Below, in pieces: positions 3,107 through 36,107 of a DNA stretch of 47,261 bases (position 1 is its first letter; every line of letters begins with the position of its first letter). Both the position numbers and the translations under genes were made by a program. The notes under the pieces were generated by a model. That model searched no databases. It was not told the origin of the DNA and saw only the letters and a list, made by a program, of their open reading frames with translations. The stretch lies in the NCBI GenBank assembly GCA_046482545.1, contig JAWOEX010000042.1:1-47261 (forward strand), written 5' to 3'. The DNA comes from Candidatus Thorarchaeota archaeon. Its GTDB lineage: Archaea; Asgardarchaeota; Thorarchaeia; Thorarchaeales; Thorarchaeaceae.

Positions 3107-3583
3107 ATGAGCCTCCTCCCAGACCTATCCCCCATGAACATACTCCTAGCGTGTGTATTCGGGATTGTTACTATTTGCACGTTCATTCCGACGAATTACC
3201 TGCTCCTGACGGGATTCATAATTTATCTATGGCTATTCCCGTTGGTAGATGTTCCAGTGATTGTCTTTCAATCTATCGCGATATTATTTGCCGGCATTTT
3301 TTCAATAGGATTCTCTTGGCTTGTTACCGAGGCAGTGAATCAAAGATCGTTGAGATTTGAGGGTGAAGACATTTCTATTGGGGGTCACATGCTTCGACTG
3401 GGGCTTTTCTCGATTGCAGTACTTGACGGAGCTCTCTACTTCTGGAATGTCATTGGAATTGTATGTGCCCTTCTGCTCATATGGTTTGGAAAGAATAGAT
3501 GGTGGAGGATTATGGGTGCCGTATCTTGGAGCTGGATTCTACTGGTTCAGATTTATGTTTCTGTCACTTCAGGAGCGTTATAA
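3107..3583 (+). CDS. small multi-pass membrane protein
   Basis: Several hydrophobic helices; ends 4 nt before the next ATG. Confidence 0.65.
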   Translation: MSLLPDLSPMNILLACVFGIVTICTFIPTNYLLLTGFIIYLWLFPLVDVPVIVFQSIAILFAGIFSIGFSWLVTEAVNQRSLRFEGEDISIGGHMLRLGLFSIAVLDGALYFWNVIGIVCALLLIWFGKNRWWRIMGAVSWSWILLVQIYVSVTSGAL

Positions 3584-3587
3584 AGCA

Positions 3588-5393
3588 ATGCAGAATACTA
3601 CACGGCCAAGTCCGAAGAAGCTAGCCTTAGTCGCTCTGACACTAATCCCGCTTGTCTTCTGGGGTTTTGAGAATATCCGTCCCAATCTGATGTTTCAGAA
3701 TGACCCTATACTTCTGTGGGTCCACGCCCCGTCAACATTGAATCCTGATTCGGATGGGAACCTGCTCATCGAAGCATGGGATATGTTTGAGCGGGTAAGC
3801 GGCACCTATTCTGGTGAAGTCGAATTCAACATAATTTCCTATAATGCATCGTCACTTGAAGAAATCGACCCATCAAAGGTAGAAGCGACTCTTCCCGGAA
3901 CCTACCGGTTTGAGGGATTTCCAATAGGCCAAGGCATCATACCCCCGTGGACGCTTCCTGGAGGGGACAATGGCGTACATGAGTTTTCCCTCTCTATAGG
4001 TACCTGTGGTATTCATTATGTTCAGGTTTCAGATACCCAAACAGGACACACGTACTGGAGCAATCCAATAGTTGTTCAGGAGAGCGAACACGGACTCTAC
4101 TGGGGGGATGTACACGGTCACTCTATGTTGTCTGATGGTAGCGGCCTACCCTCTGAAGCTTACTTCTTCGCACGTAACATCGCGGGCTTAGAGTTTTGCT
4201 CGATCACTGATCATGGAGAGAATCTGCATATCAAAAATTCATGGAATTCCGTTGAGCACGATACAAACCAAGCCTATGAAGAAGCGAAGTTTGTAGCACT
4301 GCAAGGTGTGGAGTGGACGAGCAGTGGAGGACCGCATACATCCCCACGCGGATACGGGCATTTCACCTGCGTACTATCCGGCAATGATCTGCCCCATATC
4401 AGTGCAGACATACAGAAGACTCCAGAGGATCTCTGGGCGTACTTGGACGAATTCACGCAAACTAGGAATGTCGGTGCGTTAGCCATTCCTCATCATACCG
4501 TTCGAGAATCTTTCATTCAGGACTGGACCCAGGTCTTGCAAATGGAAAGTGCCCACAACAAGTATGTACGGCTTGCTGAGGCCTTTTCGGTACACGGAAG
4601 CAGTTTGGTTAATCCCTATTCCACTTGGAGTGAAATGGGGAGTGTAGATGTTCCTGAAGAACGGGTAAATGGTAGCTCAATCAATGCTGCTCTTACCATG
4701 GGTTTGAAAATGGGTCTCATGGCAAACGGAGACTCGCATGATGGTTTCCCGGGGCATTCCATTACCCACACTGGTGCTTATGCCGGCCACCAGTATCCCC
4801 TTACCATGGATTACGCAAGGTCTTCGCATCCATACCCCTCAGGGATCACGGGTGTATTCTCAAACGAACTGAGTAGAGAGAGCATTTTCAGTGCGCTATA
4901 CTCGAGAAAAACAATCGCCTGCTCCGATTACGGAAGACCCTATGTGCTTTTTGATATCAATGGAGTTGAACCCGGTGAGAATGATTCAACGGTTATACTC
5001 GCAACCACTTCGGAAACAAGGACAATTTCTCTATTCGTTGCCAATGATGGAAATCCTGCAGCTGCTTTCGAGACTGCGGCGTTGCCAAGGAATGATGAGC
5101 CTGTTTGGACTGGTGAAATTCAGGTTTTCAAAAACGGCATGTTATGGAGGAACAGCTCCTTGAGTTCGAAACTATCCAGATTCCAGTGGACCGATAATCA
5201 AAACCTAACGGGCACAAGCTATACATCTACCGTATCAGGCCCAGATGGTCAGTATATCCACGAATACTCCAAGGATCCTATTGACCCGGACATCTTGAAT
5301 ACCAATGGCGCAGATTATTACTTCATTCGAATTCTGTTTGATAGCGGAAGAACCTGTGCAGTAGGCCCGATTTGGGTTGAATCGGCCACCTGA
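3588..5393 (+). CDS. membrane-anchored/secreted PHP-like metallohydrolase (DUF3604-like)
   Basis: Signal/TM segment after the ATG at 3588; YWGDVHGHSMLSDG, ITDH, GVEWT, IPHH, GDSHDG and terminal GPIWV motifs. The 3357 start overlaps the upstream gene. Confidence 0.8.
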   Translation: MQNTTRPSPKKLALVALTLIPLVFWGFENIRPNLMFQNDPILLWVHAPSTLNPDSDGNLLIEAWDMFERVSGTYSGEVEFNIISYNASSLEEIDPSKVEATLPGTYRFEGFPIGQGIIPPWTLPGGDNGVHEFSLSIGTCGIHYVQVSDTQTGHTYWSNPIVVQESEHGLYWGDVHGHSMLSDGSGLPSEAYFFARNIAGLEFCSITDHGENLHIKNSWNSVEHDTNQAYEEAKFVALQGVEWTSSGGPHTSPRGYGHFTCVLSGNDLPHISADIQKTPEDLWAYLDEFTQTRNVGALAIPHHTVRESFIQDWTQVLQMESAHNKYVRLAEAFSVHGSSLVNPYSTWSEMGSVDVPEERVNGSSINAALTMGLKMGLMANGDSHDGFPGHSITHTGAYAGHQYPLTMDYARSSHPYPSGITGVFSNELSRESIFSALYSRKTIACSDYGRPYVLFDINGVEPGENDSTVILATTSETRTISLFVANDGNPAAAFETAALPRNDEPVWTGEIQVFKNGMLWRNSSLSSKLSRFQWTDNQNLTGTSYTSTVSGPDGQYIHEYSKDPIDPDILNTNGADYYFIRILFDSGRTCAVGPIWVESAT

Positions 5394-15308: not shown

Positions 15309-16412
15309 GTGAAGCAGAATCGGTTCAATTTGCTCTTCAAGCTCCAAGAGATGCCGGTTGCTCCGGTGGCACAGCTTGCTAGGGAAATAGGAGTCTCAGC
15401 ACCAACTGTGCGTTCTTGGCTTGACGAATTGAGAGACCAAAGAGTTTTCGTCTCGGTCCCTGGTACCTTGAATGAGAAGAAGATAGGTCTGGAAACTCAC
15501 TCTTTCGTTGTCACCATAGATTCATATGCCTCAGTTGAGATGATTGAGGATTTTTGTGATGCCCATCCGTACACATCTTACAGAGGGAGAGTCTTTGGCG
15601 GAAACCTTCATGGAGTTTTTGTTCAGTTCCGAGAACCCAGTGCGGCAAGGATACATCTCTCGAATGCTTTGCAGATTATGAAGGAGAAAGAAATCATATC
15701 GGGAATGAGAGAACTCCCAACCCTAAGCGAACCATATACATCCACTAATACTCGTCCGAAGCTCGACGCATGGCACCCCGACAAGATGGTGTGGGAATTC
15801 GATTGGGACGGATGGTGGAACAGTGTCCCTAAGAAACGACCAGAAGGCAGTACCAAATTGGACAAGGATCAGACGCCTATTGAAATAGACAAACTGGACG
15901 TTCAACTTCTGGAAGAGCTTACGAAAGATGCGAGACGAAAAAACATTGACATGATTCAGGCGATTGGCAGAGACCCATATGAAAAAGGAGTACAACAGGA
16001 TGTTTCCAGACGACTCAGGAGACTTGAAGAAGAGGTCGTGGAAGCCTACAGAGTGTTCATCAATTGGACCCACTTCGATGTATACAACACTCCCATGGTT
16101 ATTGCAAAAGCTGAGAGAGAACTAACAGAGAAACTCGTGCATCATCTTATGAATAGTCAATTCCCCTTTGGGTCTAGTATTCGAATGATAGAGAATGGAT
16201 TTGTCTGGTCGGCTCGATTACCCAGTGCTCATCTGTCCGAGCTTGTCAGATTAGTTTGGAAAATTGCTGATACCTTCGAATTATTGATAATAGATTACAG
16301 GCACTCACAAATGTATGCTCTATGGTCAGATACATGGAATGAGAATTCACAAGATTGGAAGACTGACAGAGATTTTTGCATGCAATCCCCTTTGAAGGCC
16401 ATAGGGCTCTAG
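15309..16412 (+). CDS. tandem Lrp/AsnC-type transcriptional regulator
   Basis: N-terminal HTH (LAREIGVSAPTVR) and a second IDKLDVQLLEELTKDARR HTH. This duplicated architecture is common in Asgard archaea. Confidence 0.8.
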   Translation: MKQNRFNLLFKLQEMPVAPVAQLAREIGVSAPTVRSWLDELRDQRVFVSVPGTLNEKKIGLETHSFVVTIDSYASVEMIEDFCDAHPYTSYRGRVFGGNLHGVFVQFREPSAARIHLSNALQIMKEKEIISGMRELPTLSEPYTSTNTRPKLDAWHPDKMVWEFDWDGWWNSVPKKRPEGSTKLDKDQTPIEIDKLDVQLLEELTKDARRKNIDMIQAIGRDPYEKGVQQDVSRRLRRLEEEVVEAYRVFINWTHFDVYNTPMVIAKAERELTEKLVHHLMNSQFPFGSSIRMIENGFVWSARLPSAHLSELVRLVWKIADTFELLIIDYRHSQMYALWSDTWNENSQDWKTDRDFCMQSPLKAIGL

Positions 16413-16712
16413 TCTCCCTAAGTAGGCAACCGAACAATTGAGAGATACAATTTCTTCTCTCGCTTCGTGAAATTAAATCGGAAACCGTTTGTTAACTATT
16501 TCAGATAGTTAGATGCATCCCTATTCTGGGGAAGTGCGCTTTTGGGCTTCTTCTCAATGAAATCGAATGACGGTAGGAATGTGGTGGGAAAGAAGCACTC
16601 GCTAGAAGGATTAAGTTTTCTCTCATCGTTACAGTGCTGTCAACACTCGCAGAATTCCTCATAATGATTGATAAGATTCATGGGTGAAACGCAAGGCACT
16701 GCCATTTGGACA

Positions 16713-17369
16713 CTATTCTTTCGATTGAGGAGTATTTCCATCATTAAAAATCTCCACTGCCTTTAAACCTTCAGTCAATTCATCGATAGAAATGCCCATG
16801 TCGCTGATACACTCATTGAGTTGCTTGGCAAGTGATACTATCGAAAGAATCACATCAATCTGCTCCCATGTTTTCTCCGAGGCCCTGATGGCACTCTCGA
16901 TTACGCTGTTCGTATCTGCTTTGAGAACAAAAGCAGCTGTTCGTAAGGAAACCTCCTTGACATCTCTGCTATTACCCGCCCAAAAGGCTGCTGACAAAGG
17001 ATCTAAGAATACTTCCACACCATCATGCCGAGTCACCATGTGAACTTTCGTTACACGTCTTTGTGTATGTTCACTTGAATTTGCCTCGGAAGAGACCCTG
17101 AGAGAAGAATTCTGGTTCTTTTGGGTAAGGTTGGAGTGAACCCGTAGAGTAGGTCCTCTTGGTAAAGATATAGAAAAAGCACCAATACGGATCAATGTGT
17201 CAATCTTCTCCAGTTCCGATTCGCTTTGATTGGATTTCCATAATGATTCGATGCTAATAGAAGACCCATGTTGAAACGTAATAGTTGTCGTTATCCGTTT
17301 CATACCAGCGTCGTCTTCCTCTGATTTGGTCACAATATCCGTTTCATTATTGTTGCTCATGATGTACAT
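16713..17369 (-). CDS. hypothetical protein
   Basis: 218-aa ORF with GGAG upstream; no family recognised. Confidence 0.55.
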   Translation of the reverse strand: MYIMSNNNETDIVTKSEEDDAGMKRITTTITFQHGSSISIESLWKSNQSESELEKIDTLIRIGAFSISLPRGPTLRVHSNLTQKNQNSSLRVSSEANSSEHTQRRVTKVHMVTRHDGVEVFLDPLSAAFWAGNSRDVKEVSLRTAAFVLKADTNSVIESAIRASEKTWEQIDVILSIVSLAKQLNECISDMGISIDELTEGLKAVEIFNDGNTPQSKE

Positions 17370-17563
17370 CCGCTCCTGATTTTCCGATTGGCAGCAATAT
17401 GATGAAGACCCAAAACGCCTCTAGCTTATGTAGAGATTCTCTTGAAGTGGTATGCAAAATCTAATAACTTGGTAATCAAGTGAATGATGGTTCTTCTTTC
17501 AAGCGTTTCCTTAACGAATAACCGTTGTGTTCAAATCCTTCACATCTAATAGATATCTCTGAT

Positions 17564-17842
17564 TCACGCTGCTTCTATGCCTTGCTTTTTACTCTCCTCT
17601 AGGATGGCCTGCTCTATTCTAGCTGTAGTAGGATTACTACCGACCAGCTTGTTACCAACTATCACACCACGATAACGAATGCCATACTCCTTGGCAACCT
17701 CACTATCAGCTGAATATTCCTTGTATTCAACTATGTCTCTATGCTTTTTGACCGCCTGATAGACACGGCCAAGAAATCCGCTCTGACTGCAACCACATAC
17801 GCCTACCGCTGTGAATACCATAACTGGGATTCTCTCAGAGAT
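17564..17842 (-). CDS. small thioredoxin-fold protein with CxC motif
   Basis: VFTAVGVCGCS...AKEYGI...VIVGNKLV..PT..RIEQAI. First ATG is at 17821; a possible ATC start is at 17842. Confidence 0.65.
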   Translation of the reverse strand: MSERIPVMVFTAVGVCGCSQSGFLGRVYQAVKKHRDIVEYKEYSADSEVAKEYGIRYRGVIVGNKLVGSNPTTARIEQAILEESKKQGIEAA

Positions 17843-17846
17843 AATA

Positions 17847-18254
17847 TCACTTCCATTCGTTTCTTAGACGATCAACATGTTCTGCAATATCATCTGCAAT
17901 TCTGTCGATAAGGTCACTATTCCCATCTATAATCCCTCCTTCATCAGCTGCTGAACTCGAGTTTTCTACGTAGTCCCCCAAGTTAATTCTCACAGCTGGT
18001 TCGCTGCTGTATCTTGCCGTACCCTTTGCCGCACAGAGTTTACTACAGCCGTCAATTGTTACGGTAGGGAAGTTCTTGGCAAACTCCCGCTCTCCCTCAC
18101 CCCCAGCCAAAAAGAGGGGGAGACATATCGTCACCGTATCATCTGGTTTCAGGTGATGTAGAACCTCAAGTGTAGCAGCGCGTGAGATCTTTCCACCTTT
18201 GCATGCTTCACCACTACAGGAGATTAATCCAATCTTTGGTTTAAATGTCATCAC
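17847..18254 (-). CDS. DGC-domain (putative metal-binding) protein
   Basis: ISCSG, TICLP and IDGCSKLCA motifs. Confidence 0.88.
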   Translation of the reverse strand: MMTFKPKIGLISCSGEACKGGKISRAATLEVLHHLKPDDTVTICLPLFLAGGEGEREFAKNFPTVTIDGCSKLCAAKGTARYSSEPAVRINLGDYVENSSSAADEGGIIDGNSDLIDRIADDIAEHVDRLRNEWK

Positions 18255-18634
18255 TCAGTACCTCCATCATCAACGATTAAATCGATGATATCTTCTGCAA
18301 GAAGTCGTCCACCCTTGCCAATATCAAGCACTGTGTCAGGTTTATGTTCCCTGTTCTCTGCGAGTACTTTCGCAGCTAGTATCTGGATAACGGGCTCTCC
18401 TCCTACATGCTTGACTAAAGCCGATGCACATTTTTTCGGACAACCATCAACCGTGTATACATCTGACTCTACCACTCTTTTCTTTGCTTCTTCATCTTCA
18501 GTTAGCAGGAGTGGTAGACAGATTGTCATGTACTGGTCGTAAGCCTTGGAGTCCGCCATTTTCGAAGCGACTTCCCTTGTGACAGCTCCCAATGCTTTTC
18601 CAATTCCACTGCACGGAACTACTACGTTCTTCAT
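18251..18634 (-). CDS. DGC-domain (putative metal-binding) protein
   Basis: VPCSG, TICLP and VDGCPKKCA motifs. Confidence 0.88.
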   Translation of the reverse strand: MKNVVVPCSGIGKALGAVTREVASKMADSKAYDQYMTICLPLLLTEDEEAKKRVVESDVYTVDGCPKKCASALVKHVGGEPVIQILAAKVLAENREHKPDTVLDIGKGGRLLAEDIIDLIVDDGGTE

Positions 18635-18637
18635 TGT

Positions 18638-19474
18638 CTAATCCACCTTCGCTCCAATCTCTTCTTTTGCTTTAGCTAATGCATGTTCCATATAGTCTGC
18701 CGTGTCTCTAAGTAGTTCAAGCTCAGTAAGGTCATCAGGTCTTATGAGATACAGCCATCCCTTGTCATATGGGCTCTCATTGACGAGCTCAGGACTATCT
18801 TCAAGCAATCCATTGACCTCCACAATGGTTCCTGACAAAGGAACTATGATCTCAACCAGAATCTTTGTCGATTCCATGGCACCAGCATCATCGAATATAT
18901 CCACATGGGTGTCGGGCTTAGCCAGCTCCACGTAATAGACATCAGACATCATTTGCTGTAGAAAGTCCGAGGCGCCTATCCGAACATGTTCTCCTTCAAC
19001 GCGGGCCCAGAAATCGTTATCAGAATACTTCAGCCCCTTCGCCACTTTGAGAGTAAACTTGTCAAACTTCTCTTCCAAGTATTCTATTTCGTGCGAAGAC
19101 TCCTCGGTAACCATCTCCGACTCTGCGGATGCCTGCCCTTCAAACTGCTCTGTTACAACTTCAGTTACTGATTTGACTTTCTCTTCGAAGTCCTCGACGG
19201 AACCTACAGACTCAGGAATTGAAATGACTACAATATCCTCTCGTCCGCGTGCACGTACAAGTTCTGAAGCGCAGTTCGTTCCACAGCCATCAAGACAGAT
19301 AATGTCTGAGGTCCTATAATCACGCATCTCGCCAGGACGTTCGCTAAAGAGGGCTCCCATACTTCCGACTACTACATCATCATGATTCTTTGCCAAGCGT
19401 TCTGCAACAGCCCTCGAAATCTCTCCACCCGGTCGATCATATCCTGCACACGGAATGATGTATTTTCGCGCCAC
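18638..19474 (-). CDS. DGC domain fused to glycine-cleavage-H/lipoyl-carrier domain
   Basis: N-terminal IPCAG..LDGCGTNCA. C-terminal LKYSDNDFW, RIGASDF, MESTK (lipoyl Lys), PLSGTIVEVN and PELVNESPYDKGWL. Confidence 0.9.
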   Translation of the reverse strand: MARKYIIPCAGYDRPGGEISRAVAERLAKNHDDVVVGSMGALFSERPGEMRDYRTSDIICLDGCGTNCASELVRARGREDIVVISIPESVGSVEDFEEKVKSVTEVVTEQFEGQASAESEMVTEESSHEIEYLEEKFDKFTLKVAKGLKYSDNDFWARVEGEHVRIGASDFLQQMMSDVYYVELAKPDTHVDIFDDAGAMESTKILVEIIVPLSGTIVEVNGLLEDSPELVNESPYDKGWLYLIRPDDLTELELLRDTADYMEHALAKAKEEIGAKVD

Positions 19475-19485
19475 TCTATATCACC

Positions 19486-19794
19486 TCACTTGCTCCGTTC
19501 GGCCTTGATAATCTCGAGAATATCCGCCTTTGAAGGGAATGAAATCGCATCTTTCGGACACATCTTCTTACATGCCGTACAGAAAACCACGCAGTTGTAG
19601 CGATTCTCAATAGTGACTTGCAATGGGTCCTCATGAGATTTGTAAACCCGGTGCGGACAGAACTTCAAACAGTCGTATTCACCATCGCATCCATCGCATT
19701 TCTCGGTATCTATAGTTGGCCACCAAGGTATTTTCTTGCGGTCAACACCCATGAACGTTGTATCTGGTCCCGAATCACTCGACGTCATATCCAT
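19486..19794 (-). CDS. 2x[4Fe-4S] ferredoxin
   Basis: IPWWPTID, CDGC..CLKFCP and CVVFCTACKKMCP. Confidence 0.9.
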   Translation of the reverse strand: MDMTSSDSGPDTTFMGVDRKKIPWWPTIDTEKCDGCDGEYDCLKFCPHRVYKSHEDPLQVTIENRYNCVVFCTACKKMCPKDAISFPSKADILEIIKAERSK

Positions 19795-20176
19795 GATCTT
19801 TCAACTCCTCTGTTACCGTCTCAATAGCTTCCTCAGTAGTCATTTCACGCACGTCGATTGGTACTAGGTCCTTTTTGACATCCATCCCTCGTTTCTTGAA
19901 TGCATCTCGAAAGAGCTTGTACTGCATTATAGGCGCACAACCTGCAACGAAGACCTGCTGCCCCGGTTGTAACACGTCTTCCAGATAGCGGTCTCCATCC
20001 TTTTCACACAATTGTGGGTGGATAACGCCGTGTTCCACTGGAAGAAGCATTCGGACGGTGTTAATGAAGTCCCAGATATCCATCTTCTCAAATCCAGGAC
20101 ATTTACCCGTACACACACACATGATGAATGCAGGTTTCTCAGAGCTCAAGTCTACAGCCTCGTTCAGCCTTATCAA
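19775..20176 (-). CDS. stand-alone HdrA N-terminal-like Fe-S domain protein
   Basis: CVC..., QLCEKDG, VFVAGCAP..KLFR and IDVRE align with the HdrA N-terminus (CxC, YCSDPG, VVAACSP..FR, NLRE). The true start may be the TTG of L-S-S-E-K. Confidence 0.75.
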   Translation of the reverse strand: MIRLNEAVDLSSEKPAFIMCVCTGKCPGFEKMDIWDFINTVRMLLPVEHGVIHPQLCEKDGDRYLEDVLQPGQQVFVAGCAPIMQYKLFRDAFKKRGMDVKKDLVPIDVREMTTEEAIETVTEELKDHGYDVE

Positions 20177-20196
20177 ATATCGTTATATTTCGATAT
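20177..20196. promoter_or_regulatory. palindromic operator upstream of the HdrA-N/DGC/GcvH operon
   Basis: ATATCG-N8-CGATAT in an AT-rich promoter region. Confidence 0.5.
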
Positions 20197-20495
20197 ATCA
20201 ATGTTTCCTTCGCGCATTCTTTTCCTCGGAAGAATTTACGGCATTCTGGACGCAGTGAAAAACACCATGTTGAGTACCGATTCGGATTGTTATGGATCAT
20301 CGACCAATCCATGTCTACAGAACCGAATAAGAGCGAAACAGGTTGTGTACGGACTATCTGCTGAAAGCTATACGGCTTTGATTTCCTTGAGTGAACTGAC
20401 CCTCTATCTCACTCTAGCAAAAATTGAATGCCATTTTTATAGAGCAGATACATTAATACATCCTAGAGTACTAACACAGGAGAAGTTGGTAATCG

Positions 20496-21101
20496 ATGGC
20501 AGAGAGGTCGAACAAGGGCTACTTAATTCGATTCAACGCTGAGAAAACCATGTTTCCAGATATATGCCCAGTTTGCAACGAACCAACAACGACTGTCGGA
20601 ACGATTATCGCCTCAAAGTCAAAAGGTGGAGAGAAGTTCGACAGAGAATGGGCGGCACCAAGTAGCTTTGGCAGAGCATTGCCTTCAACACGTCATACCC
20701 GCCGTTCCGGTCCTGCATCTCTTAGGATGTTTCAGATTCCTACATGCGAAGACCATGCCTATTCTGAAGAGGAAACAGGTAGGGCCAAGGGTGTATGCGT
20801 TATTGTTAATGGCCTCTCGATTCTGGGCTTGCTATTTGTCGCCTCGCAAATAGGATTTCACCTCATTCAAGGAATTCCTGTTCCCCTCTGGTTGTATTTG
20901 CTGATGGCGTTGGTCATAGTACTGCTGATAGCCACATATAGAGGCCTTGGTTCAAGCGAGCTAGAGAAGGCGATTCGAATTGTCGATTATACTGAGGAGG
21001 GATCGACCGTTACCGTCAGGATTCGAAATGAAGTTTACGCCGAGGAATTCATTCGGTCCAACCCTCATGCCACAGTAGTCAGAACCCCCAGAAACATGTA
21101 A
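20496..21101 (+). CDS. Zn-finger-like (CPVC...PTCEDH) two-TM membrane protein
   Basis: CxxC and CxxH pairs followed by two hydrophobic helices. Confidence 0.75.
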   Translation: MAERSNKGYLIRFNAEKTMFPDICPVCNEPTTTVGTIIASKSKGGEKFDREWAAPSSFGRALPSTRHTRRSGPASLRMFQIPTCEDHAYSEEETGRAKGVCVIVNGLSILGLLFVASQIGFHLIQGIPVPLWLYLLMALVIVLLIATYRGLGSSELEKAIRIVDYTEEGSTVTVRIRNEVYAEEFIRSNPHATVVRTPRNM

Positions 21102-21964: not shown

Positions 21965-23629
21965 CTAGTTGACTATATTTGCTACTGTCCCGATAGCCCT
22001 TGTATTCGCTTCTCTGAGCACAATCTTGTCACCGTCCGAAATCGCCTCCGGTCTGAACAAGAACTCAAGTTGTACACGTGCAAAGTCTCCAACAGAAAGA
22101 AATTCTGCATCATAGATCTTCTTGAGCTCAACGCTTTGTTGAATTGTGTTACACTGAAGGACTGGAGTGTAGCCTTCGGAAATTCTAGTCGGATGACGCG
22201 TTACTACAATTTCGGCTTCGAAAGTTCTACAGGGCTCATTAGAGTCACCTGGATCAGCAAGAAGCTGTCCCCTGCGAATAGCATATTTGTCCACATCTTT
22301 GATGTCAATACCAAACATATCACCGGGCTTTACGGCGTTTACTCTCTTCTTGAAAACCTCAATTGAACCTACTCTGCCTTCTAGCTTTTCCCCACCATTG
22401 TTCGGCACGACAACAAGAGGTTGACCAGCCTTGAAAACCCCTGAACGAACAGTACCAGTGACTACTACGTTGGTGCCTCTTATGCCGCGGTACACTTTGT
22501 CAACATATGCTTGAGCAGGTTGTGTCAAGTCACCCTCTTCGGAATCAAGCGGTAACGTGCTCAACAAATCGGTAAGTAAACCGATGTTTTGCATGTTCTT
22601 GCATGACACTTCGACTACTGGAACTATAACTCCATGAGCCATCTCTTTCGTTGCAGTTTCTACGTCGTCTTGTTCTTGAATGGAAACAGGGATGCCCCCT
22701 ATATCTTTGATAGTCTTTCGCACAACTCGGTTTACAAGTTCAAGCTCTTCCTTGTCGACACTATCAACTTTCGATACAACAACAATGAATGGAATCTCTT
22801 GCCCCGACATGAGTATCATGTGTTCTCTAGTTATCTTGTCCAACCGTCGTCGGCTATTTCGCATTTCCTCTGATTTTATCAAATTGGCTTCATCTTTTGC
22901 TGGAACTAGGATAATGCCATAGCTTGCATCTCCTCCGAGAATGCTTCGAATCATTGTCTTGCTATACTCTTGATGCCCCGGAGCGTCAGCGAACATCAAT
23001 ACTCTCGCTGAACGATCAAGAGCTCTTGCCCATTCTGCCTTGTTGAGTGGGTTATGTAGATGGATGGGTTCGCCGTCACGTCCAAACCCCAGAAACGCCA
23101 TGTGTATATCAGCGGTTTGGCCTCGGGTTATCTCTTGGGGATGTTTAAGAAGGAAAGACCTAGCCTTCCCACTTCCATCATCTGCCTGTCCGGTTACAAG
23201 CGTACCAATGAGTGTGGATTTTCCGGAATTAACTCGTCCAGCCACAGAGATAGCGCAACTCTCTCTTGTCTCTGTATCTGCTAGACGCTTCAGCATATAT
23301 ACGCCAACCATTCCCTCCGGCGTCTCTACTCGGGTTTCTTCGATAATCTCTACTTCTGCCTTTTCACAGATTTGTTTCAGTATTGCCTCTGAAGATTGCA
23401 GCGCTTTCTCACTGAGCCCGTAGATTTCCCAATCTTTTCCGTCGATATCTTCGATTCCCAGTAGAAAGCGCCCCTCGAATGGACTCTCGCAGGTCATGTA
23501 CCGGATTCGGGATATCAATCTCTGTAGACGTTCCTTCCTCAAATCAGATTTAGTAAGTCTGCGTTTGAACTCAGTATTGTCTGTTTCGCCCATGCGGACG
23601 ATTTTCAACATATCAGCAGGTTGGGTCAT
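21965..23629 (-). CDS. GTPBP1/2-like translational GTPase (EF-Tu/EF1A superfamily)
   Basis: N-terminal GETDNTEFK..LLGIED domain; G1 GRVNSGKST, G2 EITRGQT, G3 DAPGH, G4 SKVD; domain II/III beta-barrels. Confidence 0.88.
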   Translation of the reverse strand: MTQPADMLKIVRMGETDNTEFKRRLTKSDLRKERLQRLISRIRYMTCESPFEGRFLLGIEDIDGKDWEIYGLSEKALQSSEAILKQICEKAEVEIIEETRVETPEGMVGVYMLKRLADTETRESCAISVAGRVNSGKSTLIGTLVTGQADDGSGKARSFLLKHPQEITRGQTADIHMAFLGFGRDGEPIHLHNPLNKAEWARALDRSARVLMFADAPGHQEYSKTMIRSILGGDASYGIILVPAKDEANLIKSEEMRNSRRRLDKITREHMILMSGQEIPFIVVVSKVDSVDKEELELVNRVVRKTIKDIGGIPVSIQEQDDVETATKEMAHGVIVPVVEVSCKNMQNIGLLTDLLSTLPLDSEEGDLTQPAQAYVDKVYRGIRGTNVVVTGTVRSGVFKAGQPLVVVPNNGGEKLEGRVGSIEVFKKRVNAVKPGDMFGIDIKDVDKYAIRRGQLLADPGDSNEPCRTFEAEIVVTRHPTRISEGYTPVLQCNTIQQSVELKKIYDAEFLSVGDFARVQLEFLFRPEAISDGDKIVLREANTRAIGTVANIVN

Positions 23630-31490: not shown

Positions 31491-32891
31491 TTGAGTATGA
31501 AGGAATACGATGTTCTTGTCGTTGGTGGCGGTTCTGCGAACAAGATTGCATTCTGGGCCTATGAAAATGGATGGAGAACAGCTCTTGTTGAACATGGTCC
31601 AATCGGCGGTACCTGCTTAAACCGGGGTTGCGTTCCCAGCAAAATGATGATTTACCCGGCCGATATTCAACACGAGGCGTTAATGTCATCAAATGTCAAT
31701 CTCAATTTGAAACTCGGTTCTCCAAATTTCTCGGAATTGATGGAACGAGTTCGGGCGAGAAGGCGTCATGCGACAAATTACAAAGCCAAAGTCATAGAGG
31801 AGGCTGATTCCTATCATTGGTACAGGGAAACTGGGGTCTTTGTGGATGATTACGTAGTAGAAGTTGACAATGAAGAATTGACAGCCAATTGCATTGTGAT
31901 AGCTACAGGCGCACGGCCATTAATACCACCAATCCAAGGAATCGATGAGGTTGATTATCTGACAACTCGAACCATTTTTGAATTGACAAAACAACCGGAA
32001 CAGATGACGATTATAGGGGGCGGGTATGTTGCGGCTGAGTTTGGTCATTTCTTCAGCGCGATGGGGACAGAGGTTACAATTGTCGGAAGGAACCCGTTTC
32101 TGGTGAAACATGAGGATACAGATGTATCTGAGTTGTTACGACGGGAGCTCTCAAAGAGAATGACAATCCTCACGAATCACGAGGTTACACGAGTCGAACA
32201 CGGCCGAAACCACAAGATGGCAATTGCGAAGAATCGTGACTCTGGTGAGGAGGTGGAGGTGCCTTCGGATACGTTGTTAGTGGCCACTGGAAGAAGACCA
32301 AATTCGGATATATGTAAACCAGAGAAGACAGGCGTGGAACTCGACCAACATGGTTTCATCAAAACTGATGAGTACCTGCAGACCTCTGTTGAGGGAATCT
32401 GGGCACTTGGAGATGCAACTGGGTTGCCAATGTTCAAACACGTAGCTGATAGAGAAGCTGAAATCGTATGGCACAACATGCAAGCTTCTCAATCGGGAGA
32501 TCAATCTCTCCGTTCGATAGACTATACCGCCATTCCATATGCTGTCTTTTCGTATCCTCAAATAGCAACAGTTGGGAAGACACTTTCTGAAGCTAAGGAG
32601 ACGAGTTCAAGTCTTCTAGTTGGTAGGGCAGAATACACAGATGTTGCCAAGGGTGACGCCATGGGGAAACCAAAAGGATTCTGTAGAGTAATTGTAGATG
32701 CAGAATCTGAGGCGATATTGGGTGGGAGCATAATCGGCCCATTTGCTCCCATATTGATTCAACCAATCACCCAAGCCATGTACACAAGCGACAGGCACTA
32801 TGAACACCTTCTACAACCCATCTACATTCATCCAGCTCTACCTGAAATAGTCAGAAATGCTGTGAGAAACCTAGAGCCCCTAGCGTTGTAA
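31491..32891 (+). CDS. dihydrolipoamide dehydrogenase / mycothione reductase-like flavoprotein disulfide reductase
   Basis: GGTCLNRGCVPSK, IGGGYVAAE, ATGRRPN, IWALGD and IHPALPE. Confidence 0.92.
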   Translation: MSMKEYDVLVVGGGSANKIAFWAYENGWRTALVEHGPIGGTCLNRGCVPSKMMIYPADIQHEALMSSNVNLNLKLGSPNFSELMERVRARRRHATNYKAKVIEEADSYHWYRETGVFVDDYVVEVDNEELTANCIVIATGARPLIPPIQGIDEVDYLTTRTIFELTKQPEQMTIIGGGYVAAEFGHFFSAMGTEVTIVGRNPFLVKHEDTDVSELLRRELSKRMTILTNHEVTRVEHGRNHKMAIAKNRDSGEEVEVPSDTLLVATGRRPNSDICKPEKTGVELDQHGFIKTDEYLQTSVEGIWALGDATGLPMFKHVADREAEIVWHNMQASQSGDQSLRSIDYTAIPYAVFSYPQIATVGKTLSEAKETSSSLLVGRAEYTDVAKGDAMGKPKGFCRVIVDAESEAILGGSIIGPFAPILIQPITQAMYTSDRHYEHLLQPIYIHPALPEIVRNAVRNLEPLAL

Positions 32892-33866: not shown

Positions 33867-36107
33867 TTAGCTGACTATTTCAATTCTGCCAGAACCTGAA
33901 TCGATGACATGGCCTATCTTGACAGCGTTGTCGATCCCTCGTCGGGCCAATTGTTTCATCAAATCAGGTAGTCGGTCTTCAGGTAGGCTAATCAATAGGC
34001 CACCAGATGTTTGGGCATCAGCTAACAACAACAGATCAATCTGAGTTATGCCTTCTTCAATATCGAGGTGAGGCCTTACATGACTGAGATTGTTCTTAGT
34101 GCCCCCGGGTATGACACCAGCTCCAGCAAGTTGTCGTGCGGTTTCTAGTATAGGTACTGCACTTGCCGAAATTGAGACATCAACACCACTACCTGCAGTC
34201 ATTTCCCTCAGGTGCCCCAGTAATCCGAAACCGGTGATGTCAGTACACGCGCTAACTCCGACTTCCATCATGGCCTCGGCCGCTCCCTGATTGAGGGATG
34301 CCATCAGGTCTCTAGCTATTGTAGTAGTTTCTTCATCTGCGAGCCCCCGCTTAACTGCCGTCGATATTATGCCAAGTCCAATAGGCTTAGTGAGAACGAG
34401 AACATCGCCTGGCTTGGCAGTGCTATTGCGCACCACCTCATCAGGGTGAACAACTCCAGTAACTGCCAGACCGTATTTCGGCTCGGTATCTTCAACAGTA
34501 TGTCCTCCAATTATGCTGATTCCTGCCTCAGCGGCTTTGTCCTGTGCACCTGCCAGTATCTCTTCCAGTACCGATAGAGGTAATCTGCTGGAGGGAAAAC
34601 CTACAATGTTCACGCCTAGTATGGGTCTTGCACCCATTGCATAGATATCACTCAACGAATTTGCGGCCGAGATTGCACCAAACCAGTATGGCTCATCTAC
34701 AATCGGTGTGAAGAAATCAACCGTCTGAACAATTGCCATCTCATCATTTACACGATAGACGGCGGCGTCATCTGAAGTCTCAATTCCAACCAAGATATTG
34801 GGATCTGTAGGAACAGGCAGCGTTCTTAGTACTTCCTCAAGTGCCTGTGGACGTAACTTACAGGCGCAACCGAGGCCATGAGTATAGCGAGTCAGTTTGT
34901 ATGTCTCTTTTTGTTCTGATTCACGTAGAGAAACGGCACCGGGTGCTGGCTGTAAACGTTTCACTGTTGATGATACAACATCTACTACTTTCTCTATTTC
35001 CTTCGCAGTGGTCCCTCTTCCAACCGAAAAGCGAATAGTGCCCATGGCCCAGTCAACAGGAACCCCCATGGCTTCTAGAACCGCAGACACATCGATATCT
35101 TCAGCATGACATGCTGCTCCGGCCGAAGCTGCAATTTCATCCTGAATCTCGGAGAGTAGAGTATTAGCCTCTATGCCACGGAAACTAAGACTTAGTGTAT
35201 TTGGCAATCGCAGTTCTGGATGGCCATTCAGTCTGAACCTTTCTCCACGTAGTTCGTCAAGCAAACCATCATGAAGCATATCACGCATCCTCTCGAAATG
35301 TTGCATATTCTTCTCTAAGTCACGCTGTGCGATCTCACAGGCCTTCCCAAGCCCGACTATCTCAAGTACATTTTCAGTGCCAGGGCGTCGATCCATTTCA
35401 TGATCAGCCCCGTGCAATATCTTCTCCAGCGTGGTTCCAGTGCGAATGTAAAGTGCGCCAATCCCTTTTGGAGCGTACAACTTGTGTCCTGCGAGTGAAA
35501 GCAAGTCCACACCAAGGTCATCGACACTTACAGGTATCTTCCCAATCGATTGTGCAGCGTCAGTATGCATGAGTGCCCCGTGTTCATGGGCGATTTCAGC
35601 AAGCTCAGCGATTGGTTGTATCGTCCCAACTTCATTATTCGCGTGCATAACTGTAACAAGTATAGTGCCTAGAGTAATGGTTTCTCTGAGGTCTTCCGGG
35701 TCTACTCGGCCATACTCATCGACTGGGAGAACTGAAATGGTAAAACCCTGCGTTTCGAGCCAATCGCACACTTCGAGAACAGCAGGATGCTCTATTGCTG
35801 ATGTTATGATGTGGTTCCCTTTGTCCTTGTGCTCTAGAGCCGCTCCTTTGATTGCGTAGTTGTTACTCTCGGTACCGCCGCTTGTGAAGACAATCTCTTC
35901 GGTCTTGCACTCTAAAAGGTCCGCAACCTGTTTCCGAGCAGATTCAACGGCCAGCTTAGCTTTAGCTCCGTAAGGATGGCTACTAGATGGATTTCCAAAA
36001 TGCTCGAAGATGTATGGCACCATTGCCTCTCCAACCTCAGCAGCAATGGGAGTTGTTGCATTATAATCCAGGTAAATCGGGTGTTCAGAGCCTTCGTCTC
36101 GTGGCAT
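33867..36107 (-). CDS. selD: NifS/selenocysteine-lyase-like domain fused to selenophosphate synthetase SelD
   Basis: N-terminal YLDYNATTP, GNPSS, TSGGTESNN, GHKLYAPKG, RPGTENV and GAACH. C-terminal GCACK, DDAAV, VDFFTP, SDIYAMG, DITGFGLLGH and QTSGGLL. Confidence 0.95.
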   Translation of the reverse strand: MPRDEGSEHPIYLDYNATTPIAAEVGEAMVPYIFEHFGNPSSSHPYGAKAKLAVESARKQVADLLECKTEEIVFTSGGTESNNYAIKGAALEHKDKGNHIITSAIEHPAVLEVCDWLETQGFTISVLPVDEYGRVDPEDLRETITLGTILVTVMHANNEVGTIQPIAELAEIAHEHGALMHTDAAQSIGKIPVSVDDLGVDLLSLAGHKLYAPKGIGALYIRTGTTLEKILHGADHEMDRRPGTENVLEIVGLGKACEIAQRDLEKNMQHFERMRDMLHDGLLDELRGERFRLNGHPELRLPNTLSLSFRGIEANTLLSEIQDEIAASAGAACHAEDIDVSAVLEAMGVPVDWAMGTIRFSVGRGTTAKEIEKVVDVVSSTVKRLQPAPGAVSLRESEQKETYKLTRYTHGLGCACKLRPQALEEVLRTLPVPTDPNILVGIETSDDAAVYRVNDEMAIVQTVDFFTPIVDEPYWFGAISAANSLSDIYAMGARPILGVNIVGFPSSRLPLSVLEEILAGAQDKAAEAGISIIGGHTVEDTEPKYGLAVTGVVHPDEVVRNSTAKPGDVLVLTKPIGLGIISTAVKRGLADEETTTIARDLMASLNQGAAEAMMEVGVSACTDITGFGLLGHLREMTAGSGVDVSISASAVPILETARQLAGAGVIPGGTKNNLSHVRPHLDIEEGITQIDLLLLADAQTSGGLLISLPEDRLPDLMKQLARRGIDNAVKIGHVIDSGSGRIEIVS

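Follow-up and report, generated by a model that had tools for sequence, protein, structure and literature searches.

A compact operon of iron-sulfur (Fe-S), DGC-domain and lipoyl-carrier proteins lies in a 47,261-nucleotide (nt) stretch of DNA from a Candidatus Thorarchaeota archaeon (GenBank assembly GCA_046482545.1, contig JAWOEX010000042.1), and its probable function is considered here. The whole stretch, referred to below as the window, corresponds to contig C7; the host genome has a size of 3.05 Mb and a completeness of 98.9%. The six genes, g1 to g6, run in the same direction on the minus strand and together span 17564–20176; neighbors overlap or are no more than 25 nt apart (Table 1). 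The overlap of g1 and g2 is 20 nt, g4 overlaps g5, and the other spacings are 11 nt (g2–g3), 3 nt (g3–g4) and 25 nt (g5–g6). A palindrome, ATATCGAAATATAACGATAT on the minus strand, precedes the probable start of g1 by about 37 nt and overlaps an AT-rich, TATA-like stretch. A sequence-only reading of the same DNA had proposed a six-gene minus-strand operon with a palindrome in front, and both were found where that reading had placed them.

The gene identities given in that reading also hold, namely an HdrA N-terminal fold, a ferredoxin, three DGC domains and an H domain with its lipoyl lysine; the thioredoxin-like nature of g6 is only probable and comes from Atlas structure matches. In Pfam, g2 matches Fer4 with 24.8 bits (cut-off 21.1), the C-terminal part of g3 matches GCV_H (PF01597) with 103.1 bits (cut-off 22.2), and the DGC domain (PF08859, cut-off 27) is found in g3, g4 and g5 with 38.5, 55.6 and 59.0 bits, respectively. 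The Pfam search gave no match for g1 and g6. The true start of g1 is probably the in-frame TTG at 20149, which yields a protein of 124 amino acids (aa), because the orthologues have MSSEKPAF as their N-terminus. Similarly, g5 probably starts at the ATG at 18251, since a 134-aa database protein (P0269) is 100% identical to the product. All three DGC domains of the host genome belong to this operon.

Table 1. Positions of the operon genes and of the associated features in the window.
Feature	Coordinates	Strand	Description
g1	19775–20176	minus	ORF (open reading frame) of 133 aa; stand-alone Fe-S protein resembling the HdrA N-terminal domain
g2	19486–19794	minus	2x[4Fe-4S] ferredoxin; Fer4 match
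g3	18638–19474	minus	DGC + GCV_H fusion; Pfam
g4	18251–18634	minus	DGC protein; Pfam
g5	17847–18254	minus	DGC protein; Pfam
g6	17564–17821	minus	small CxC protein, probably of thioredoxin-like fold
dn218	16713–17369	minus	family-less, Thorarchaeota-specific protein accompanying the cassette
operator-like palindrome	20177–20196		core ATCG-N8-CGAT at 20179–20194

The first five genes form a cassette that recurs widely. Among 300 Asgard genomes sampled besides the host, full-length DGC-GcvH fusions of the g3 type occur in about 25 of the 76 genomes of the host family, and also in several other families at 30–36% identity. The fusion family comprises approximately 98 clusters at 45–100% identity, whose named members are Thorarchaeota or Sifarchaeia records. 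Two genus-mates of the host, 99% and 96% complete, have no DGC-GcvH fusion, and the cassette is an accessory trait. In 30 fetched Asgard loci, the order g1-g2-g3-g4-g5 is kept whenever the locus extends far enough to include the genes. Scanning one genome per species yielded 127 loci, 80 of which were retained. Their archaeal carriers are Thor-, Prometh-, Heimdall-, Jord- and Freyarchaeota; the bacterial ones include Clostridium ljungdahlii, C. ragsdalei, C. thailandense, Neomoorella, Moorella, Acetobacterium, Formimonas and Eubacteriaceae, together with Actinomycetota, Armatimonadota, Synergistia, Vulcanimicrobiota and Deferrimicrobium. Gene order is identical in these loci wherever all five genes were called, and the DGC pair lies elsewhere in a few bacterial ones. 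The recurrence of the order in 30 Asgard and 80 further loci places g1–g5 as genes far beyond chance, and it answers the gene-neighborhood survey that the sequence-only reading had suggested: the set is conserved together in other genomes. The cassette is real, co-inherited and horizontally spread. Literature searches with the DGC domain or PF08859, and with GcvH or lipoate together with ars genes, found no paper on the cassette; the term "DGC domain" retrieves papers on diguanylate cyclases, and a paper on arsenate respiration in Fusibacter does not mention the cassette genes.

The product of g1 is the best conserved part of the cassette, with 65–87% identity among Asgard loci and 55–70% between archaea and bacteria. 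A profile match aligns it with residues 8–93 of HdrA, with the four cluster-ligand cysteines in register. Its AlphaFold model, with a predicted local distance difference test score (pLDDT) of 90, retrieves HdrA chains from three methanogens at all of Foldseek ranks 1–7 (E 1e-5 to 2e-4, TMq 0.58–0.66), and MvhD chains appear further down the list. The fold and the four cysteine ligands are those of the HdrA N-terminal domain and MvhD of methanogen heterodisulfide reductase (PDB 7bkb, 5odc, 8rvu). Unlike that domain, g1 stands alone at about 125 aa (124–133 aa), without the FAD and ferredoxin domains of HdrA. Its family is very small, as 1.84 billion proteins include 125 representatives, nearly all of them free-standing and of ~120–135 aa. 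It is always paired with a ferredoxin of a special subfamily, and its own subfamily has a fifth cysteine. Cys20, 22, 57 and 80 are invariant throughout the family; Cys26 is confined to this subfamily, in which all five are invariant.

The ferredoxin g2 carries the motifs C-x2-C-x5-C-x3-CP and C-x3-C-x2-C-x3-CP. A ferredoxin of this type, 41–46% identical to g2, follows even distant bacterial homologues of g1, and an ArsR with a CxC motif precedes such distant g1-g2 pairs in three of the four contexts examined. One protein of 437 aa (P0218) is a natural fusion of g1 and a ferredoxin with an additional cysteine-rich C-terminal part. Minimal bacterial modules composed of ArsR, g1 and g2, with no DGC or GcvH gene, were also observed (L048–L051).

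In g3, a DGC domain (residues 1 to ~95) is joined through a variable linker to a GcvH-like lipoyl carrier (~143–265). An intact lipoyl lysine had been read from the sequence; it is Lys204 in AMESTK (codon 18863–18865), and it is invariant across 20 aligned orthologues. The second cysteine of the g3 DGC domain is missing in Thorarchaeota only, whereas other lineages keep it. Against the NCBIfam gcvH model (TIGR00527), the H domain scores 99.2 bits, which is under the equivalog cut-off of 115.85. The host has three GcvH-like genes: one on contig C28 that adjoins gcvT and passes this cut-off with 150.3 bits, a divergent one on C20, and g3. Maximum-likelihood analysis places 26 cassette H domains in a single clade, which is split from the 30 top-scoring Asgard GcvH proteins with support of 100/99; the tree is unrooted, and its sequences include neither LbpA nor bacterial canonical GcvH. 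A grouping of the H domain with canonical glycine-cleavage proteins, which would have spoken against a special system, is thus at odds with both the separate clade and the sub-cut-off score. Bacterial and archaeal sequences are interleaved within the cassette clade. Every cassette H domain is part of a DGC fusion and has Fe-S genes beside it.

Genes for the usual partners of a lipoyl carrier were looked for in the window. The sequence-only reading had found there no gcvP or gcvT, 2-oxoacid dehydrogenase, HdrBC or FAD-binding HdrA core. The searches agree in that GcvP, GcvT, E2 and CCG/HdrB have no match in the window; gcvP lies on contig C23 of the host, gcvT on C28 and an E2 gene on C22. The list needs correction for a FAD-dependent disulfide reductase at 31491–32891 (plus strand), which resembles dihydrolipoyl dehydrogenase (E3) and is not an HdrA core. 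This 466-aa class-I flavoprotein, 11 kb from the cassette, is dihydrolipoyl dehydrogenase-like with 536.6 bits and stays under every equivalog cut-off.

The divergent third GcvH paralogue of the host (G000:C20:48927–49289) scores 90.6 bits, under the cut-off of 115.85, and is thus non-canonical; its branch is very long. An HdrB-like gene with CCG-domain matches (C20:45589–46182) is located some 3 kb away, and the paralogue might serve an Hdr-like system as an LbpA-like carrier. Two other Asgard genomes (G041 and G058) contain eight or nine GcvH-like matches each, far more than glycine cleavage needs.

The two separate DGC proteins each have four invariant cysteines, at 8, 39, 65 and 69 in g4 and at 13, 44, 70 and 74 in g5. 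The model of g5 (pLDDT 83) is a flavodoxin-like sandwich with the cysteines at the ends of strands 1–3 and at the start of the next helix. The DGC family has more than 5,000 proteins, for which NCBI uses the name "putative zinc-binding". Chains of low-molecular-weight protein tyrosine phosphatase (LMW-PTP) and ArsC appear among the Foldseek matches at E 0.02–0.1, with TM 0.34–0.38 and a root-mean-square deviation of ~10 Å, and were rejected as evidence for kinship of DGC with ArsC.

The sequence-only reading had envisaged the DGC domains as a heteromeric unit, and complex prediction supports this for g4 and g5. The pair reaches an ipSAE of 0.78 (0.78, 0.77 and 0.78 in separate runs), compared with 0.00 for the best control. 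Contact agreement between the runs is at least 95% and the pLDDT of the partner at least 80; 58 of 80 solved complexes attain this mark, as do 2 of 110 mismatched pairs. The predicted interface is formed by the cysteine-bearing loops of both chains, and the model supports a g4-g5 heterodimer joined through its cysteine faces. As a separate observation, g1 and the DGC domain have a common topology with a cysteine at the end of each of strands 1, 2 and 3. These cysteines are paired in a weak profile alignment (hhalign probability 23%), which hints at a distant common ancestry.

The sixth gene has an invariant CxC motif. No match to g6 was found in Pfam, in the PDB or with profiles, and hhalign against the neighboring Thioredoxin_3 family gave none either; a PDB profile match to a designed repeat protein is spurious. 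In the Atlas, structure comparison matches g6 to Thioredoxin_3 clusters (TM 0.70–0.78; Atlas model pLDDT 0.68), and the predicted fold is probably thioredoxin-like. Orthologues of g6 are about 9 residues longer at the N-terminus (..KIPVMVF), and the window contains an in-frame ..ERIPV at 17821–17850 without ATG, GTG or TTG. No standard start codon is therefore available there; either g6 has become slightly shorter or its translation begins at an unusual codon.

Downstream of g6 lies dn218, homologues of which occur downstream of the cassette in other loci (L011–L013, L015, L044 and L054–L075). Searches of Pfam, NCBIfam and the Atlas gave no family or fold lead for it. In a genus-mate (G027), only ~120 bp separate the Lrp gene from the homologue of the gene at 20496–21101, compared with 4.1 kb (16360–20480) in the window, and the flanks are collinear. 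The interval absent from the genus-mate holds exactly dn218, g6, g5, g4, g3, g2, g1 and the palindrome. The indel is clean, and the seven genes were therefore gained or lost as one unit. In a complete Thorarchaeal genome (CP070761.1; L044/L062), a second, partial tail of this block was observed at ~3196–5077, 6 kb upstream of the cassette, where an 80-aa fragment of g5, a g6 paralogue, arsR and a dn218 homologue adjoin acr3.

What surrounds the cassette in other genomes is predominantly arsenic resistance. All neighbors of 77 loci holding g3 were clustered, and the commonest clusters were annotated (Table 2). The ACR3 proteins score 425–445 bits against an equivalog cut-off of 282.8. Of the 76 neighboring ArsR proteins, 66 contain CxC[D/E], and in most of the remaining ones K or N comes after the CxC; this CxC occupies the position of the arsenite-binding cysteines of classical ArsR (R773 ArsR). 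In 5 bacterial loci the cassette adjoins a gene for a true dihydrolipoyl dehydrogenase (511.5 bits, cut-off 408.8). The sequence-only reading had proposed a thiol/disulfide or sulfur/metalloid relay. The metalloid option agrees with this context, which is overwhelmingly one of arsenic (CxC ArsR, ACR3, ArsC, ArsA and ArsP), and the sulfur option finds little support in it.

Table 2. Gene families found near the cassette in 77 loci holding g3.
Neighbor	Loci	Loci within 5 kb
ArsR/SmtB	55	50
ACR3	39	32
g6	30	29
DsbD-type membrane protein	19	15
PF04060 Fe-S protein	18	15
AhpC/ResA-like protein	18	13
Lipoate ligase	14	12
DUF166	12	12
Thioredoxin_3	10	10
LMW-PTP-type ArsC	10	9
Cysteine desulfurase	8	6
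Dihydrolipoyl dehydrogenase	5	5
ArsA	4	4
ArsP, two clusters	5 and 4	5 and 3

In the host itself the arsR-acr3 pair is on contig C22, unlinked to the cassette, and the connection is made by the palindrome. The site before the host acr3 (C22:152593) reads ATCGCTATTTTTCGAT and that before g1 reads ATCGAAATATAACGAT, with ATCG-N8-CGAT as the common core. In other Thorarchaeal loci, this core is found ahead of g1 in 12 of 15 cases and ahead of acr3 in 8 of 15, but ahead of only 1 of 14 arsR genes and none of 58 g3, g5 or g6 genes. The cassette and acr3 have a common, operator-like site in Thorarchaeota. Other intergenic copies, which adjoin phospholipase D-like, HMG-CoA synthase-like and fumarase-class lyase genes, were taken as chance occurrences. 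The only LMWPc gene of the host is ArsC-like but under the cut-off, and the genome has no match to the ArsC family PF03960. The window contains no lipoate ligase, and the host genome has no close orthologue of the cassette-linked ligases. A BPL_LplA_LipB match near the C22 arsR-acr3 pair is a biotin ligase rather than a lipoate ligase.

We lean towards regarding the cassette as the Thorarchaeal copy of a widespread, undescribed five-gene module of the arsenic regulon of anaerobes, which would keep or cycle a dihydrolipoyl arm for arsenic handling. That its role is related to arsenic at all is highly probable. That the Fe-S and DGC proteins redox-cycle the lipoyl arm is somewhat more likely than not; the invariant lipoyl lysine and the recurrence of E3 and lipoate ligase as neighbors speak for a redox-cycled lipoyl group. 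The chances are about equal that the arm serves in arsenic capture and as a chaperone, or that it has a reductase or reductant role.

The proposed mechanism is as follows. The g2 and g1 proteins, which together would hold three [4Fe-4S] clusters, could bring low-potential electrons to a cysteine-rich DGC hetero-oligomer built from g4, g5 and the g3 DGC domain. From its tether on g3, the lipoyl arm would swing into this DGC unit and be kept, or cycled, as a dithiol; we infer that electrons flow from the Fe-S proteins to the arm. In one option, the dihydrolipoyl arm would capture As(III) and pass it to the pump. Alternatively, the arm would be a dithiol reductant for the reduction of arsenate or organoarsenicals, directly or through ArsC or g6. 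At its most novel, the proposal would amount to a new arsenic-detoxifying machine of anaerobes. A ferredoxin-fed Fe-S pair and a DGC hetero-oligomer would keep the tethered arm reduced, and the arm would provide the catalytic dithiol for a ferredoxin-dependent reductase of arsenate or organoarsenicals, or would load ACR3 as an arsenite chaperone. We offer this version tentatively and rate its chances as somewhat below even.

Several observations weigh against an arsenic module of this kind. No ars gene adjoins the cassette in the window, and the link is made through relatives and a short palindrome. The palindrome was defined after both promoters had been viewed, and the Thorarchaeal loci in which it is replicated are kin rather than independent. 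ATCG-N8-CGAT is not enriched genome-wide, with 33 copies against 45 expected; the argument from the palindrome therefore rests on its position and on its replication across kin loci. The DGC fold points to no functional relative: Foldseek gave no match for g5 at E <= 0.001, and the best VIA match (Z 8.3) is to generic flavodoxin-like domains. The g4-g5 score may reflect an ancestral homodimer interface inherited by the paralogues. ArsC co-occurs with the cassette in 10 islands, and the cassette is therefore not simply a substitute arsenate reductase. Some islands have TusA, DsrE/H and YeeE (L053), cysteine desulfurases, or DsbD or AhpC-like proteins, and with such sulfur-trafficking and thiol neighbors a broader thiol or sulfur role also fits.

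The sulfur version of such a role would be a persulfide relay akin to sHdr-LbpA, in which sulfane sulfur would travel on the lipoyl arm from one cysteine-rich DGC protein to another, and persulfide, not arsenite, would be the signal for the ArsR-family regulator. In sHdr-LbpA sulfur oxidation, a GcvH-like lipoate-binding protein is associated with Hdr-related Fe-S proteins and has its own LplA-like ligases (Cao et al. 2018, eLife, PMC6067878). Both this system and the cassette have a non-canonical, GcvH-like lipoyl carrier outside carbon metabolism and Hdr-related Fe-S proteins; lipoate ligases of LplA-like type lie near the cassette in 14 of 77 loci. At L053 the cassette is adjoined by TusA, a YeeE-type transporter, two DsrE and a DsrH, a cysteine desulfurase is found in 8 loci, and the neighboring ArsR proteins give weak secondary matches to BigR models. 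However, the cassette has only the N-terminal domain of HdrA, as a free protein, and its carrier is fused to DGC. Neither the window nor the annotated neighbor families include a CCG-domain (HdrB/C-type) or FAD-HdrA partner, which leaves the LbpA/Hdr-like comparison drawn in the sequence-only reading with little support. The regulators carry the arsenite-type CxC motif, ACR3 is the commonest non-regulatory neighbor outside the cassette, and the context is arsenic and not sulfur oxidation. The carriers include acetogens and fermenters rather than sulfur oxidizers. We consider a sulfur relay unlikely.

A general thiol-disulfide or peroxide defense is improbable to a similar degree. The lipoyl-dependent peroxidase relay of Mycobacterium tuberculosis, Lpd-DlaT-AhpD-AhpC, uses protein-bound dihydrolipoyl as the dithiol reductant for thiol proteins. 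By likeness to it, the arm would feed thioredoxin- or peroxiredoxin-like proteins, and co-location with ars genes would merely follow from the thiol stress that arsenic causes. E3 and AhpC-like genes indeed adjoin the cassette in some bacteria, and AhpC/ResA-like, DsbD-type and Thioredoxin_3 proteins recur (Table 2). Nevertheless, AhpC-like neighbors are far rarer than ArsR and ACR3, and partners of this kind are absent from the Thorarchaeal block, including the window, although the cassette and the operator-like site are kept there. The core electron input of the cassette is proposed to be Fe-S proteins and ferredoxin rather than NADH and E3, and the DGC partners and the regulon differ as well.

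Other soft metals or metalloids (Sb, Se/Te, Hg, Cd/Zn) could be the substrate, with metal bound at the four-cysteine sites of DGC and chelated by the lipoyl arm. ACR3 also exports Sb(III). The "putative zinc-binding" name of the DGC proteins would suit such a role, as would cation-efflux (CDF) genes in 5 loci and SLAC1/TehA-like and SBF_like transporters in L011. Weak links lead to families of the selenoprotein-rich Tso neighborhood, namely TsoR, TsoX, a GcvH-related protein and the MbdU-like DUF5714. These matches (g6 to TsoX at E 0.01) are all far under the cut-offs, and the Tso lead was kept as a loose parallel with selenoprotein operons, not as evidence. The neighbors themselves are specific for arsenic at equivalog level (ACR3) or are classical ars genes (ArsC-type LMWPc, ArsA, ArsP), so there is only a small chance that another metal is the true substrate. 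Finally, g3 could be an ordinary housekeeping protein, either a variant H protein of glycine cleavage or a donor in a lipoyl relay, and not part of any special system. The strong GCV_H match suggests this, as does the label "glycine cleavage system H protein" that several sources give to the fusion. This reading is very improbable, since a canonical gcvH beside gcvT passes the equivalog cut-off that g3 fails, the H domains form a separate clade and are always fused to DGC between Fe-S genes, and the cassette is accessory, patchily distributed and delimited by a clean indel.

The favored reading, a module of the arsenic regulon, places the cassette beside the known ars operons and regulons (ArsR, ACR3/ArsB, thioredoxin-coupled ArsC, ArsD-ArsA). 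The genomic home is the same and the regulator probably the same. Small cysteine-rich proteins are found in both, and by analogy the cassette proteins may handle arsenic. To our knowledge, lipoyl carriers, DGC domains and HdrA-N-like Fe-S proteins are not among the products of any ars gene described so far. Unlike ars operons, the host cassette is unlinked to arsR-acr3 and is tied to it by the common palindrome only.

Two further genes of the window were observed outside the block. A single ORF of 746 aa at 33867–36107 (minus strand) encodes a NifS-type cysteine desulfurase fused to SelD (selD 394 bits, cut-off 125). At 21965–23629 (minus strand) lies a gene for a 554-aa translational-GTPase-like protein, similar to EF-1alpha, EF-Tu and SelB but far under all cut-offs, with an N-terminal extension of ~120 aa.

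The carriers of the cassette include cultured and genetically tractable acetogens (Clostridium ljungdahlii, Acetobacterium and Moorella), and its function is therefore directly testable. The interleaved phylogeny of the H domains shows that Asgard archaea and anaerobic bacteria have exchanged genes. If the proposal is true, it would give the DGC family its first function and the free-standing HdrA N-domain family a role, and it would add a third role for protein-bound lipoate, beside carbon metabolism and sHdr sulfur oxidation. Arsenite is toxic largely through its binding of dihydrolipoyl groups. The classic victim of arsenic would thus have been turned into a tool, and a dedicated lipoyl carrier controlled by arsenic would be a new principle in metalloid resistance.

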